Source: Candidatus Poribacteria bacterium (GTDB taxonomy: Bacteria > Poribacteria > WGA-4E > WGA-3G). From it: a stretch of 64,000 nucleotides of DNA. Where the stretch lies: assembly GCA_026710795.1 (NCBI GenBank), contig JAPOQK010000005.1:1561-65560 (forward strand), in the 5' to 3' direction. The position numbers and the translations under genes were made by a program. How positions within the stretch are numbered: the stretch's first letter is position 1; every line of letters starts with the position of its first letter. Positions 16,947-61,301 of this stretch are shown here, piece after piece. The notes beneath the pieces were generated by a model. The model saw nothing but the letters and a program-made list of their open reading frames with translations, did no database searches and was not told the origin of the DNA.

Positions 16947-21065
<4,119 letters not shown>

Positions 21066-21086
21066 AAACCTAAATACAATATATGT

Positions 21087-21406
21087 CCAATACATATCCA
21101 AAATAAATTCCATTTTTAATTTGACACATACAAATAGATACTATATAATTAACACATGTTTAGAATGTAGTCCTATATCGATAACACGTGTTTGGATACT
21201 CAAAAAGAGGTTAGGTTCCCTGATGAAGCGACAATTCGTGAACACAAACTTTACAGCCACAATGTGCGACAATTTCCGAAGGTAAGATTGAGTGAAACAA
21301 ACAAAAATGGGGCAGAAAAAAAATGCTAAAATCGCGTCACTTTCCTTGTCCAGACTGGATTCAAAACGTCACAGTGACGTGCAAAAGGTCACATTTAAAA
21401 CACATA
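21087..21406 (+). ncRNA. Copy A of duplicated promoter-bearing non-coding element (putative ncRNA)
   Basis: Aligns by eye with 60647-61005 in two blocks; own consensus promoter; no ORF conserved between copies. Confidence 0.45.
21121..21149 (+). promoter_or_regulatory. Perfect sigma70 consensus promoter
   Basis: TTGACA (21121-21126) N17 TATAAT (21144-21149) with AT-rich upstream region. Confidence 0.8.
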
Positions 21407-21549
21407 GGAATGGTATTAAACGGGTATCTGTCTTTACACTACATTCTGAGGTTCAGAAAACAGAATGAAATATAGTCTTGAAACCGATCCAACAAGAGAA
21501 AAGTAATATCCATGCCAATAACTTTACGCACTCACAAAGATTAATTTGC

Positions 21550-21578
21550 TTGACAAATTCAACGAAAACCTATTTAAT
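21550..21578 (+). promoter_or_regulatory. Likely sigma70 promoter of the rid-fabV unit
   Basis: TTGACA-N17-TTTAAT. Confidence 0.55.
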
Positions 21579-21651
21579 AATAAAGGTTATTCTAACCAAT
21601 CGTGATTGTTACACCATTAAATATGAACTTATTCGGGAGATATAAAATTAG

Positions 21652-22113
21652 ATGAAAATAGAGAAACGGCTTGAAGAATTAGGGATCGAATTACCAGAAC
21701 CTGCAATACCCGTAGCAAATTACGTTACCACAGTTCAAACAGGAAATCTTGTCTTCACATCTGGACATGGACCCGGCACAGGTGAGGGCAAAATCTATAA
21801 AAGCCAACTCGGCACAGATGCCACCATTGAAGAGGGATATGAATCTGCACGTCAAGTTGGACTCGGATTAATAAGTACACTCAAACATGCGTTAGGCGAT
21901 CTGGATCGGATCAAACGCGTTGTGAAGGTAGTCGGTTTTGTCAATTCTTCTGCAGATTTCACTGATCAACCTGCTGTCGTCAACGGTGTATCAGATCTAC
22001 TTGTTGAAGTATTTGGTGATAAAGGCAAGCATGCACGTTCTGCTGTTGGCATGGTGCAATTACCCGGTGGTATACCTGTTGAAGTCGAAATGGTCGTAGA
22101 AATTGAAGACTAA
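21652..22113 (+). CDS. RidA/YjgF family protein
   Basis: PVANYV, DQPAVVNGVSDLLVEVFG, HARSAVG, PVEVE motifs. Confidence 0.9.
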   Translation: MKIEKRLEELGIELPEPAIPVANYVTTVQTGNLVFTSGHGPGTGEGKIYKSQLGTDATIEEGYESARQVGLGLISTLKHALGDLDRIKRVVKVVGFVNSSADFTDQPAVVNGVSDLLVEVFGDKGKHARSAVGMVQLPGGIPVEVEMVVEIED

Positions 22114-22135
22114 CCCTTAGAAAAGAAGGATAATA

Positions 22136-23329
22136 ATGGCAGTTCAAATTGTCAAACCACGGATTCGTGGTTTTATCTGTACAAACGCGCATCCTGTTGG
22201 TTGTCAAACAAACGTTCAAAACCAGATACAACAAATTAAAGAGAACGCTCCGATCAAAGAGACAGGTTTGAACGCACTTGTTGTTGGTGCATCAACTGGG
22301 TATGGACTCGCTTCTCGCATTGCGTTAACATGGGGATACGGGGCAAAAACGTTGGGACTTCTCTATGAACGTCCCGCAGATGAACGCCGCACTGCATCAG
22401 CAGGTTATTACAATACCGTCGCATTCCATCAAAATGCACAACAGGATGGATTTTTAGCAGAAAGCCTTAACGGGGATGCCTTTTCAGATGATGTGAAGCA
22501 AGATGCCATCGCACAACTCAAAGCAAATTTTGGCAAAATAGGTATTCTTGTTTATAGCATCGCTGCACCACGCCGAACCCATCCACGCACTGGTGAAACA
22601 CATAATTCTGAGTTGAAACCGATTGGTGAACCGTATACAGGGAAAACCATTGACCTGAGCAATGAAGTCGTTGCACCTGTAACAATAGAACCTGCAACTG
22701 ACAAAGAAATCGCTGATACGATCGCTGTGATGGGTGGTGAAGATTTGGAGATGTGGGTTGATGCGTTAGCAGATGCCGAATTGCTTGCCCCAAAGGTTAC
22801 AGTTGTTGCATATACCTATATCGGCAGTTCCTTAACGTGGTCTATCTACAAGGATGGCACAATCGGCAAGGCAAAGGACGACCTGAAAACACGTGTTGAC
22901 GCACTGGATGAAAGACTTTCAAATCAGTTCGGTGGTAATGCGTATATATCGGTAAACAAAGCTGTCGTTACGCAAGCCTCCGCGGCAATACCTGTTGTAC
23001 CGCTTTACATCAGTATCCTTTATGATATTATGAACGCGAAAGGTATAAATGAAGCACCGATTGGACAGATGCAGCGGTTATTCTCAGAACATCTCGGTCC
23101 TGAACTAACACCGCAACTTGATAGTGATCGTTACATTCGGTTAGATGACAGAGAATTACGGCAGGATATTACCGATGCGGTCACTGAACGGTGGGAAAAA
23201 ATTGATACTGACAATTTTCATGAACTCTCTGATTACGCTGACTACAGACGTCGCTTCCGAAACCTCTTCGGTTTTGAGGTAGAGGGTGTTGACTACGATG
23301 AAGCAGTAGAGACAGAAGTGACATTCTAA
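22136..23329 (+). CDS. fabV: Enoyl-ACP / trans-2-enoyl-CoA reductase FabV
   Basis: RGFICTNAHPVGC, GASTGYGLASRI, VMGGED, YKDGTIGKAK, LFGF motifs. Confidence 0.93.
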   Translation: MAVQIVKPRIRGFICTNAHPVGCQTNVQNQIQQIKENAPIKETGLNALVVGASTGYGLASRIALTWGYGAKTLGLLYERPADERRTASAGYYNTVAFHQNAQQDGFLAESLNGDAFSDDVKQDAIAQLKANFGKIGILVYSIAAPRRTHPRTGETHNSELKPIGEPYTGKTIDLSNEVVAPVTIEPATDKEIADTIAVMGGEDLEMWVDALADAELLAPKVTVVAYTYIGSSLTWSIYKDGTIGKAKDDLKTRVDALDERLSNQFGGNAYISVNKAVVTQASAAIPVVPLYISILYDIMNAKGINEAPIGQMQRLFSEHLGPELTPQLDSDRYIRLDDRELRQDITDAVTERWEKIDTDNFHELSDYADYRRRFRNLFGFEVEGVDYDEAVETEVTF

Positions 23330-23383
23330 GAATTGAAACTTGTTTAGTAAACAGATTGCACGTTAGATTCGGGATGGTATCGT

Positions 23384-23710
23384 GTGGATTTACAAACTAT
23401 CCGTGAGAGAGTTCAAAATGGTAACTATCTTGTCAAAAAACATGCAATTCTGCATGCTCAAAAGGAAGGTTTTCAAGTTAAACACATGGTAGAAGTAATC
23501 CTCAATGGGAGAATAATTGAAACATATCCAGATGATCAACGAGTATTGATTTGTGGACGTTCTACTTTACTGAAAAACATTGTGGTTTATCTACATGTTG
23601 TGTGTGAATATGCGGATCCAATTTATATTGAGTTTGTGACTGCTTACATCCCCGATGAGAATCAGTGGCAATTTCCTCCGTTTTCCCGATTAAGACTTAG
23701 AAGGAGATAA
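23384..23710 (+). CDS. DUF4258-like protein (putative RelE-fold toxin)
   Basis: KHA..., ILNGRIIETYPDD, LHVVC, VTAYIPD..W pattern. Confidence 0.7.
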   Translation: MDLQTIRERVQNGNYLVKKHAILHAQKEGFQVKHMVEVILNGRIIETYPDDQRVLICGRSTLLKNIVVYLHVVCEYADPIYIEFVTAYIPDENQWQFPPFSRLRLRRR

Positions 23711-23713
23711 CCT

Positions 23714-23977
23714 ATGACACCGAAGCCACCTCCAATTTGTGCAGAACATAACAAACAAAAAGAATGGCGGCAAACGGAATTCAGCTATAACGAAAATGGA
23801 ATTACAATTCGTATTCCGAACGTCTATGCTTGGGTTTGTCCAGAAGATGGTGAAGCATCATTCACACATGAGACTGCCGACGAATTGATTGTAGTATTGC
23901 GCGATTTCGTTGAAGCTGCCAAGCGTGCCAAAGAGAGGCGGTCTGTTTTCACTGAATATGTTGTCGCTGTTGAATAA
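23714..23977 (+). CDS. YgiT/MqsA-like zinc-finger protein (putative antitoxin)
   Basis: CxxH ... IPNVYAWVCPEDGEASF pattern, 3 nt after the DUF4258-like gene. Confidence 0.65.
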   Translation: MTPKPPPICAEHNKQKEWRQTEFSYNENGITIRIPNVYAWVCPEDGEASFTHETADELIVVLRDFVEAAKRAKERRSVFTEYVVAVE

Positions 23978-24030
23978 ACTTTTCTTTTAAGGTGAAATTA
24001 TAAACAATACCTGAAAATAAGGAGAAACTT

Positions 24031-24753
24031 ATGGCACAACCTTTTGTTACAGTTTGGAACGAATTTAGACACGAAAAAACGAATGAAGCTATCAAAAAAT
24101 TATATCCCAAAGGTATTCATAATGCAATTGCCGATGGGTTAAGCGAACACGGAATTGAAACCTTGACTGCTACGTTAGATGAGCCTGAACACGGACTAAC
24201 TGACGAAGTGCTTGAAAAAACGGACGTGTTGATATGGTGGGGACATGCCGCACACGGTGCCGTTGAAGACGCAATCGCTGATAAGGTAAAAGCACGGGTA
24301 CTGCAAGGTATGGGACTTATCGTCTTACATTCTGGACACTATTCTAAGCCGTTTATCCGTTTGATGGGAACATCTTGTAGCTTGAAATGGCGTGAGGCAG
24401 CGGAAAAGGAACGAATCTGGGTGATAGAACACGGACATCCAATTGTCGAAGGACTTGACGAGTACTTTGAAATTGAGCATGCCGAAATGTATGGTGAACC
24501 GTTTGACATTCCTGAACCCGACACGCTTGTTTTCATCAGTTGGTTCCCCGGTGGTGAAGTGTTCCGTAGCGGTTGTTGCTACTACCGCGGCAGAGGAAAG
24601 ATATTCTATTTCCGTCCCGGTCATGAAACATATCCAATTTATTACGACGAAAACGTCCGTCGTGTGATAGCAAACGCATCACGTTGGGCAGCCCTCGGAG
24701 ATGCACCAAAACCTGTTTTTGGACATTCACAACCCTTAGAACCGTTAGAATAG
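24031..24753 (+). CDS. thuA: ThuA (trehalose utilisation) family protein
   Basis: [33 protein letters not shown] motifs. Confidence 0.9.
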
Positions 24754-24809
24754 AAGACAATAGAAAACAACATTAATTGACTCTATTCCTTCAAATTTAT
24801 AACTTAAAC

Positions 24810-24945
24810 TATAGTGAACTTTAGAATTAACAGGACATTTTGAGTTGTAGGAGGAAACTCCGATTCCCGACTATCAGTGAGTTTTGTCGCGATTCGGAGA
24901 TCGCTCCTACAGAAATGTGTCTCTTTAATTTCAATGTTTACCATA
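24810..24945. repeat. REP doublet embedded in a long imperfect inverted repeat (REPIN/MITE-like)
   Basis: GTAGGAG...CTCCTAC core (24847-24910); arms TATAGTGAAC..AATTAA..ACATTT and AAATGT..TTAATT..GTTTACCATA. Confidence 0.65.
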
Positions 24946-25021
24946 AATACAGAATGTGCTCCTATGTGGAAACTTGAGCTAATTTACCACTAACTCTTTT
25001 AACCTTAAATGGAGATGAACC

Positions 25022-60236: not shown

Positions 60237-60485
60237 AGTTTTCTATTTTACTGAATGCTGTGTAGTTTGTCAATTCCTTTTTATCATAAAAGGTTTATTA
60301 GTTTTAGGGTTTTTGATTAGATTTTATCACAAACGTTCTTGTTCCTATTGCTTTTTTGAGGTGTTCAATCATTATTTGTCTCAACTAGGACTTGCCGTTT
60401 ACAGGACCCCTAACATTGTATGGTAGGGTCTCTGTGTCCTGCCATATCCATCCTTTAAAAAGGAACACTGGAATACCAAACTCAT

Positions 60486-60631
60486 AATCCTGTAAATCCT
60501 ATAATCCGTGGAATGCCAAAAGGCATTCATACCCGACAAATGCCATACGCGCATTTGGCGTTGATTTGGGGGAACGCCAACAGGCGTTCATACCGTTGAT
60601 TTCTTGATTTGGTAAATCCTGGTTCAGGCAA
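60486..60631. repeat. Three GAATG-type hairpin units nested inside an AATCCTG repeat
   Basis: GAATGCCAAAAGGCATTC, AAATGC..GCATTT, GAACGCCAACAGGCGTTC with CGTTGATTT tails. Confidence 0.75.
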
Positions 60632-60646
60632 TCATAATTTAAAATA

Positions 60647-61005
60647 CCAATATATATCCAATAAAACATTTACTTTTTAATTTGACATCTACAAAAAGAT
60701 ACTATATAATTAACATTTGTTTAGAATGTAGGATTATATCTGTGACACGAGTTGAGATACGTTAGAAGGAGGTATAAACACAAATTCACCAAGTGTGTAG
60801 TGCTTGGTTTTTGTGTCTAAGGGACTGTATATGGGGTTTCTAAATTTCCCAGCTTCATGTCTTACAAATTGTGAAGGTAGGTCAAGATAAGAAAAAGACT
60901 AAAAAGGAGCAAATAAAAAAAGCGAAATTCGCGTCACATTCCTTATCCTGACTGAATTCTTTAAGTCACAGGTGACGTGTAAAACGTCACAATTTATAGC
61001 ACATA
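60647..61005 (+). ncRNA. Copy B of duplicated promoter-bearing non-coding element (putative ncRNA)
   Basis: Aligns with 21087-21406; TTGACA (60682-60687) N17 TATAAT (60705-60710). Confidence 0.45.
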
Positions 61006-61301
61006 CTGATAAACAACGTAAGGGTAAATTAACAGGTATAGGTTTGCTTCTCTCTACACGGTCTATAAGAGATTATATTGAATTGTGAAAAATATATCCG
61101 AAAATACTTAAAACCAAATAACCCTGTTGTCATCAAATTGTATCTTGACAAGATATAATGGAAAGATTAATATAAATATATGATGTGTATATCTAAATGA
61201 AGTTCTACAATATTCAACCTAATTTTCCTCAGAATATGCCGACTTTTATTGCAAACTGACTAAATAAAATATTGCTCTATTATATGGACTATAGACAAAA
61301 A

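Follow-up and report, generated by a model that had tools for sequence, protein, structure and literature searches.

Two intergenic stretches on one contig of a Candidatus Poribacteria genome look alike and carry the same consensus promoter sequence, and the question raised by this locus is whether they are genes for a non-coding RNA or copies of a mobile element. The genome, G000, is a metagenome-assembled genome (MAG) of 4.70 Mb in 114 contigs, 94% complete. The window, that is, the whole stretch of 64,000 nucleotides that was analyzed, belongs to its contig C108 (window position equals C108 position minus 1560), and the runs containing the window locus are sponge metagenomes. A previous reading of the letters (the sequence-only reading) had singled out positions 21087-21406 and 60647-61005 and had proposed either a multicopy non-coding RNA of 250-300 nt or a non-autonomous mobile element with a strong promoter. 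Both stretches were found at these positions, each with a variable middle between conserved 5′ and 3′ blocks, and an alignment of the two (copies A and B) showed 80% mean column identity over 421 columns. The perfect sigma70 promoters that had been described were present in both copies (Table 1), both copies lay between divergent genes as stated, and the separate promoters attributed to the downstream genes were also recovered. The extents first given for the element turned out to be too short, copy A being an insertion of about 21041-21512 and copy B lying within an inserted block at 60287-61126 (Table 1).

Table 1. Coordinates of the features of copies A and B, of the neighboring promoters, and of the TnpB matches discussed in the text. 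Positions are those of the window unless a contig is named.
Feature	Position	Strand	Remarks
Copy A, whole inserted segment	21041..21512	+	By comparison with the empty site in G024; right edge between ..AGTAATATCCA and TGCCAATAAC
Copy A 5′ module: upstream box, promoter, first ~110 nt of parent non-coding unit	21088..21262	+	
Copy A promoter, TTGACA-17-TATAAT	21121..21149	+	12/12; predicted start near 21156
Copy A 3′ block: A-run, TCGCGTCAC..CCAGACTGGAT.., palindrome ACGTCACAGTGACGT, further GTCACA	21327..21398	+	
Copy A tail (A-type)	21399..21512	+	Ends directly before the conserved rid promoter region
Promoter region of rid itself, outside the element	21550..21578	+	..TTGACAAA(A/T)TC.. in 11/11 relatives' loci
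Inserted repeat block with copy B	60287..61126	+	Flanks TTATCA (60281-60286) and TTGTCA (61127-61132)
Copy B 5′ module: upstream box, promoter, first ~60 nt of parent unit	60648..60773	+	
Copy B promoter, TTGACA-17-TATAAT	60682..60710	+	12/12; predicted start near 60717
Copy B terminator-like hairpin (9 pairs, 3 G-C, 3-nt loop) and T-run	60788..60818	+	
Copy B start of shared 3′ unit: GAAGGTAGGTCAAGATAAG, then A-rich run	60873..60923	+	
Copy B 3′ block (GTCAC array)	60924..60996	+	Reference for the 94-match genome search
Copy B tail	60997..61126	+	Terminus ..AAAACCAAATAACCCTG; conserved in B-type and class II copies
Promoter-like site of tolB-like gene, outside the element	61145..61173	+	10/12; also beside the G024 empty site
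TnpB zinc-ribbon matches at contig ends	C87:18-212, C102:156-350, C73:6-182, C113:6-143, C43:75271-75465		
TnpB zinc-ribbon match, internal	C16:63655-63810		

In agreement with the sequence-only reading, no ORF was common to copies A and B. A 20-codon ORF in copy A and a 19-codon ORF in copy B, considered as coding candidates, were in different frames and were discarded; a frame open through the 3′ block was also discarded, being broken among copies by a CACA-GTGAC/CACAGGTGAC indel.

The stretches had been taken for a pair, and the genome proved to contain dozens of them (93-94 3′ blocks and 48-51 promoter blocks). BLAST of both copies against G000, which the sequence-only reading had suggested, returned roughly 50 matches to the 5′ block and more than 90 to the 3′ block. 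For the 3′ block, 94 matches were obtained with its core as query and 93 with a pattern allowing at most 2 mismatches (0 with the reversed pattern as control), and the signature of the 5′ promoter module was found 51 times. According to what stands upstream, 48 of the 94 3′ blocks follow a sigma70 module (class I, the kind present in the window) and 28 follow the truncated head of a protein-coding gene (gene X; class II), the remaining ones having ..GGTTCAGAAAA directly upstream (5 blocks), other sequences (8), or being cut by contig ends (5). About 30 3′ blocks stand at contig ends and point inward, which indicates that the repeat breaks the assembly. The distance from promoter to 3′ block ranged from 212 to 590 bp in the 47 paired copies; the middle differs between subtypes and is nearly all deleted in some of them, for example in copies on C15, C44, C4, and C31. 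The same 3′ block search was applied to relatives. Against 93 copies in G000, nine congeners contained 15, 14, 13, 9, 4, 2, 2, 1, and 1, the other 29 genomes of the genus contained none, and none was found in 65 genomes of the sister genus. This excess of copies in G000 over its congeners indicates a lineage-specific burst.

The promoter is nearly invariant while whole copies are only 70-92% alike: the -35 box reads TTGACA in 50 of 51 family copies, the -10 box reads TATAAT in 49 of 51, and the spacer is 17 nt long in all 51. Of the 107 perfect TTGACA-N17-TATAAT sites on both strands of G000, 50 belong to the family.

Insertion sites, orientation, and ends of the repeat

A relative, G024, lacks both window copies at the corresponding loci. 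There, tgt and rid lie in synteny (G024:C108) without segment 21041-21512, and the right edge adjoins TGCCAATAAC before the rid promoter; the argE/tolB-like spacer measures 118 bp with a single TTGTCA (G024:C407), against 1004 bp in G000. The empty site also sets the end of the copy A tail, which is common to the copies on C44 and C15. The sequence upstream of the rid promoter was different in each of 11 relatives and the promoter itself was conserved, which points to this spacer as an insertion hot spot. In relatives, the spacer corresponding to 21513-21651 was seen to house an element ending in a ..ATAAATAACCCTG terminus (G018) and a class II-like module in opposite orientation (G046).

Orientation was analyzed on crude gene calls, for which ORFs of 90 aa or more were taken (3661 in all, spanning 87% of the genome). 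The next downstream ORF was co-oriented with the element in 84 of 93 cases and opposite in 9, one element being without a neighbor; if elements fell at random in position and strand, with spacers weighted by their length, the expected co-oriented fraction would be 0.597 (binomial P=4.8e-11). Among the 64 copies with both neighbors called, 42 were in divergent spacers, which make up 29% of spacer bases; a further 16 had tandem neighbors in the orientation of the element and 3 had tandem neighbors in the opposite one, and 3 lay between convergent genes. Three of the nine exceptions rest on ORFs of 96-108 aa with a co-oriented gene beyond, and these ORFs are probably spurious; the other six look real. 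The 84 downstream proteins were mostly unrelated and included, judging by their N-termini, RplM, TsaD, AccD, and sulfatases (genes rplM, tsaD, and accD among them). With respect to these genes, the 3′ blocks stand 140-300 nt upstream of start codons, beside the genes' own promoters. The repeat ends 140 nt (copy A) and 146 nt (copy B) before the start codons, and the end of the element lies, where readable, 15-25 nt 5′ of the -35 box of the next gene.

The ends of the element were then compared. The block containing copy B has TTATCA and TTGTCA at its flanks, and its left end carries a degenerate inverted copy of its right terminus. The terminus of B-type tails, ..AAAACTAAATAACCCTG, occurred 152 times in G000 (70 forward and 82 reverse, with at most 3 mismatches), and pairs of inverted termini (CAGGGTTATTTAG..) bound units of 302-915 bp, one of them of 302 bp, with five compact units enclosing family copies. 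Copy A has no inverted termini. No target-site duplication was found at copy A, and no consistent one in 6 further units bounded by terminal inverted repeats that were inspected. Termini reading CAGGGTTATTTAGTTTT.., which number 152 in the genome, bound a small inverted-repeat family, for example at C47:4533-4834, and this terminus module is common in congeners without the GTCAC block.

Other repeats occur in the same spacers. Small abundant repeats share them at 20912-20993, 21041-21075, and 60470-60640, among them a hairpin repeat GTAGGTCGGAGC..GCGACCTCCGAC and GAATGCC..GGCATTC hairpins. In G000 and relatives, an ..AATCCTG(T/G)..GGTTCAGACAA repeat stands directly 5′ of most family copies; it has 93-100% matches in many congeners.

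The search for an autonomous partner covered Y1 transposases and TnpB, and the longer parent units (about 0.7-1.2 kb; see below) contained no ORF. No match to a Y1 transposase was found in G000, and the RAYT/REP model was rejected. G000 does contain a multicopy TnpB (IS605-type) element, with 6 zinc-ribbon matches of which 5 are at contig ends (Table 1), so that this element also breaks the assembly. An origin of the repeat as a TnpB/IscB guide RNA (omega RNA) was considered and rejected: the TnpB right end, ..GGGGAGTATGTCAA, is unlike the repeat, and no TnpB match lies beside a 3′ block. The sequence-only reading had named a match to the end of a known insertion sequence as a finding that would speak against it, and none was seen against the TnpB end, the only multicopy insertion sequence end examined.

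A parent non-coding unit and a second head

In relatives, the promoter of the window copies leads into a conserved sequence of about 275 nt. Using a single-sequence query, this longer, parent unit was detected in 35 of the 159 genomes searched in the order (14 out of 39 from the genus of the window, 20 out of 65 from the sister genus, and none from 16 other genera), with 1-6 matches per genome. The genes flanking full units are not syntenic, and in the sister genus the conserved unit extends over about 1.0-1.1 kb without an ORF. One full unit is present in G000 (C58:603-916, minus strand; 83% identical). Copy A matches it at 82% over 178 nt, from the upstream box to RNA position ~110, and its 5′ module also matches the parent units of relatives; copy B matches it at 80% over 127 nt, to position ~60. 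No match between either copy and the C58 unit was found beyond the 5′ module. Since only the 5′ heads match, the window copies look like internal-deletion chimeras that keep two ends.

The parent unit is apparently a conserved, structured non-coding unit. A model of 26 pairs was tested on 24 non-redundant sequences from two genera, with the caveats that this alignment had also served to choose the helices and that most compensations come from two clades. In it, 97.7% of pairs were formed and 9 pairs had changes on both sides; none of 500 shuffles reached this value, and slid controls reached at most 3. The global fold predicted by RNAalifold changed between sets of 10 and 24 sequences. When 13 relatives' loci were searched against Rfam at E<=1, the only match was a chance one to a human lncRNA model (E=0.8). 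Some copies of the unit in relatives (loci L126, L130-L132, and L134-L135) have an insertion of about 110 nt between the two conserved halves of the unit. A CUGAUGA box made a hammerhead ribozyme a candidate. Hammerheads have a conserved catalytic core around three helices. No Rfam hammerhead match was obtained, core positions vary (..CUGACGC.. in the sister genus), and there is an extra base between helix II and GAAA (alignment read by eye); the candidate was rejected. A long-range pairing of the RNA 5′ end with the 3′ block was also rejected: it was predicted on 10 sequences, lost in 24, and uncompensated in the G000 copies.

At half of the 10 full-unit loci examined in relatives, a GTCAC block follows on the same strand, 0.6-1.2 kb downstream; at the other 5, none was found within about 3.3 kb downstream. 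In G000, contigs C58 and C5 are probably linked, which would put a 3′ block some 1.05 kb beyond the start of the full unit; the link rests on an overlap of about 148 nt that was read by eye and is partly generic repeat.

Class II copies carry a different head. Upstream of the 3′ block they have an extended -10 promoter, a leader rich in CA, a hairpin, and a ribosome site, together with an ORF of 29 codons that corresponds to the first 24 codons of a family of proteins of 220-250 aa (gene X). G000 has one full copy of gene X (C97:39557-40243, minus strand) and 28 truncated heads (24 codons) fused to the 3′ block, and in some relatives gene X forms multicopy units of 1.4 kb. Its N-terminus is DUF2280-like (Pfam E=0.027, below the cut-off; language-model score 0.91, 21/30 matches). 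Immediately 5′ of the ribosome site, each gene-X subfamily has GT.AC-type palindromes of its own (GTTACC, GTACCA, CGTACC, and TGTACG). The junction seen at the start of the copy B 3′ unit (Table 1) recurs after the truncated gene-X ORF in class II copies. Since heads of classes I and II meet the 3′ unit at the same junction (..GGTAGGTCAAGA..), we conclude that two promoter-bearing heads were joined to one 3′ unit.

Proposed mechanism and rival explanations

The explanation that we favor, and consider probable, is that the two stretches belong to a dispersed repeat, gene-less and non-autonomous, which has recently multiplied in this Poribacteria lineage; each copy would be a chimera of the head of a parent unit and a 3′ unit, mobilized in trans and carrying an outward promoter. 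The second proposal of the sequence-only reading, a non-autonomous mobile element with a strong promoter, is in line with the high copy number, the empty sites, the lineage burst, the lack of a shared ORF, and the conserved ends around a variable middle; lineage restriction, promoter invariance, orientation bias, and chimeric ancestry were likewise observed. According to this explanation, each copy would keep the head of a parent of about 1 kb, with its consensus sigma70 promoter and first 60-110 transcribed bases, together with the conserved 3′ unit (A-run, GTCAC array, and tail), the middle having been replaced or deleted. A trans-acting factor would move or copy the element at the DNA level through these conserved ends. 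Copies would persist only where the strong outward promoter reads in sense into the next gene, and insertions firing antisense into genes would be lost, leaving copies in promoter-side spacers, just 5′ of the gene's own promoter. The element would then be an extra, portable upstream promoter or, in copies with a hairpin terminator such as copy B, it would yield a short by-product RNA. A strong outward promoter would explain both the retention pattern and the likely effect of the copies. The GTCAC array is probably a protein-binding DNA site, either for the mobilizing enzyme or for a regulator. On the other hand, the near-invariance of the GTCAC block exceeds what recent spread alone would give in copies that are 70-90% alike elsewhere, and the block may have a function of its own. 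Copy B and 7 others have a terminator-like site that would block read-through. Promoter activity and read-through into the downstream gene are putative, as is the mechanism of mobility, all of them being predictions from sequence.

An unlikely alternative is that the copies are genes for a multicopy, trans-acting, small or medium-sized non-coding RNA, of which the conserved 5′ and 3′ parts would be the product. Its strength lies in the ancestry of the 5′ block, since the parent unit resembles a real structured RNA, is shared by two genera, and has no Rfam counterpart. That part of the RNA proposal of the sequence-only reading stood; the part concerning the window copies did not. These keep only parent nt 1-110 (copy A) and 1-60 (copy B), so that the 3′ strands of the helices are lost and the parent helices are not kept. 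The predicted RNAs of the window copies folded no better than shuffles, with plus-strand z-scores of -1.25, +1.75, -0.69, and -1.79 and minus-strand z-scores of +0.09 and +0.30, none of them significant, and RNAalifold gave only -3.5 kcal/mol for the 93 distinct 3′ blocks. In a few variants the palindrome keeps its pairing on the plus strand through G-U pairs (by eye), as would suit an RNA; against this, the 3′ block also contains a 1-nt indel and unpaired changes. Subtypes, moreover, differ in the middle or have lost it, no copy is present in 29 of the 39 congeners, and a trans-acting RNA need not sit upstream of a gene and point at it. The evidence from the parent unit is itself limited by the choice of helices and the two clades mentioned above.

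As regards the transcript, copy B has a promoter and a terminator-like hairpin (60788-60808) that together predict an RNA of about 100 nt, not the 250-300 nt previously suggested. Only 8 of 51 copies have a terminator-like site no more than 180 nt from the predicted start (7 of these are B-type, with the site near +70), and a scan for hairpins followed by T-runs found none in copy A. A small hairpin with a T-run considered as a minus-strand terminator was rejected: its left arm varies freely among copies and the terminator scan found none. No Rfam match, which had been named as a possible refutation of the sequence-only reading, was obtained at gathering score in the 64-kb window. Contigs of runs X8, X20, X14, and X2 were compared with the interval 17000-25000. 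A single RNA-run contig, of 156 nt, lay at 21019-21172 (5 differences, 1 gap, depth 3.3), and there was repeat-derived depth over the copy A 3′ block; such contigs carry no information on starts, ends, or strand, and the run may contain DNA.

The 3′ block is the basis of another explanation, to which we give an equally small chance: the element would be a regulon-building cis-regulatory cassette, in which a phased array of GTCAC operators would place some 90 downstream genes under one regulator. The GTCAC motifs and the TCGCGTCAC.TTCCTT.TCC.GACTG sequence are nearly invariant in the 93 copies and likewise in the copies of other genomes, successive motifs begin about 31 and 20 nt from one another, close to whole turns of the helix (hand count), and 84 of the 91 GTCAC-N0-4-GTGAC palindromes of G000 are in 3′ blocks. 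The position of the blocks relative to start codons and to the genes' own promoters would also suit an operator, and so would the similar palindromes that precede the start of gene X and change by subfamily. The single full copy of gene X, however, has a different palindrome. No GTCAC palindrome outside the repeat was found beside a candidate regulator gene in G000: of the seven, six are in ORFs and the single intergenic one falls within rRNA. Twenty-nine of the 39 genomes of the genus lack the array, as do the G024 loci, which indicates that the genes work without it, and the downstream genes have no common functional theme. No convincing match to an alternative-sigma promoter was seen by eye in the 3′ block.

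A more speculative idea, which we regard as rather improbable, concerns the parent itself. The unit of about 1 kb may be a new gene-less element built around a long structured RNA, with at least 275 nt of co-varying helices, a consensus promoter, no Rfam counterpart, and 1-6 non-syntenic copies per genome in two genera; its RNA or the GTCAC array may aid its own spread or act in trans, and promoter-bearing derivatives would then have rewired about 90 genes of G000. Finally, it is hardly credible that the similarity arose as an artefact of assembly or binning, or through local segmental duplication without element identity: the MAG has 114 contigs and many copies are at contig ends, but a DNA contig from an independent sample (X2, 20963-21347) reproduced copy A in place with 0 differences, the copies have different unique flanks and unrelated neighbors, and the family is present in complete single-contig relatives.

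Comparison with known repeats and significance

The dispersed, promoter-bearing repeat resembles MITEs, which derive from longer transposable elements by internal deletion: it is short and non-coding, with 93-94 copies, conserved ends, a deleted or replaced interior, insertion polymorphism (from 93 copies to 0 across 39 congeners), and a lineage burst. It departs from MITEs in having a longer parent (about 0.7-1.2 kb) without an ORF of its own and in that one of the conserved ends is a promoter; no related transposase-encoding element was found when parent ORFs, Y1, and TnpB were examined. The repeat is a new promoter-bearing, MITE-like family, and no such family appeared in the literature on Poribacteria intergenic repeats, judged by titles and abstracts in a limited search.

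Correia elements (CREE) of Neisseria measure about 100-155 bp and have well-defined inverted ends and a TA duplication. By description, the Poribacteria units differ in being 210-590 bp long or more, with inverted termini in some and no consistent duplication, and also in their complete internal 12/12 promoter in 50 of 51 copies and their strong orientation bias toward the next gene. Both are short, gene-less, multicopy intergenic repeats with a strong outward promoter (putative here), and in the Correia case the expression of neighbors is altered. Correia elements are among the mobile elements with functional promoters (PMC3575422), and a second source states that they may modulate expression and that a transposase of an insertion sequence might mobilize them in trans (PMC3898611). 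The location of the Poribacteria repeat upstream of a set of unrelated genes is reminiscent of the REP2/CREN repeats of Neisseria meningitidis. REP2 is short, abuts the start codon, supplies both promoter and ribosome site, and is associated with fewer than 20 genes. Unlike REP2, the Poribacteria element ends 15-25 nt 5′ of the gene's own conserved promoter, has 93 copies, and derives its head from an apparently structured non-coding unit. REP2/CREN repeats influence the expression of the unrelated genes that they precede (PMC3898611).

Putative mobile promoters were defined by Matus-Garcia, Nijveen, and van Passel (2012; PMC3575422) as similar non-coding sequences upstream of non-homologous genes in one genome, with a mobilizing mechanism that is unknown. 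Their survey covered positions -150 to -50 before start codons, requiring at least 80% identity over at least 50 nt upstream of non-paralogous genes, and most families were pairs (PMC3575422). The Poribacteria repeats are likewise highly similar non-coding sequences 5′ of non-homologous genes, and they differ in forming a family of about 50-94 members. Copies A and B fall outside the strict definition, since positions -150 to -50 are native sequence in both and the repeat stands further upstream; the element is predicted to work like a putative mobile promoter from that more distant position.

These results have consequences at several levels. For assembly, the breaks at about 30 contig ends are relevant to Poribacteria MAGs in general. 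For ancestry, the data point to an undescribed structured non-coding unit common to two genera. As for gene expression, one repeat family makes up almost half of the perfect consensus promoters of G000 and stands before about 90 unrelated genes, housekeeping genes included. If these promoters fire, a single burst would have added an upstream promoter to about 2% of the gene complement of this uncultured sponge symbiont, and the family would represent a large natural case of promoter propagation.
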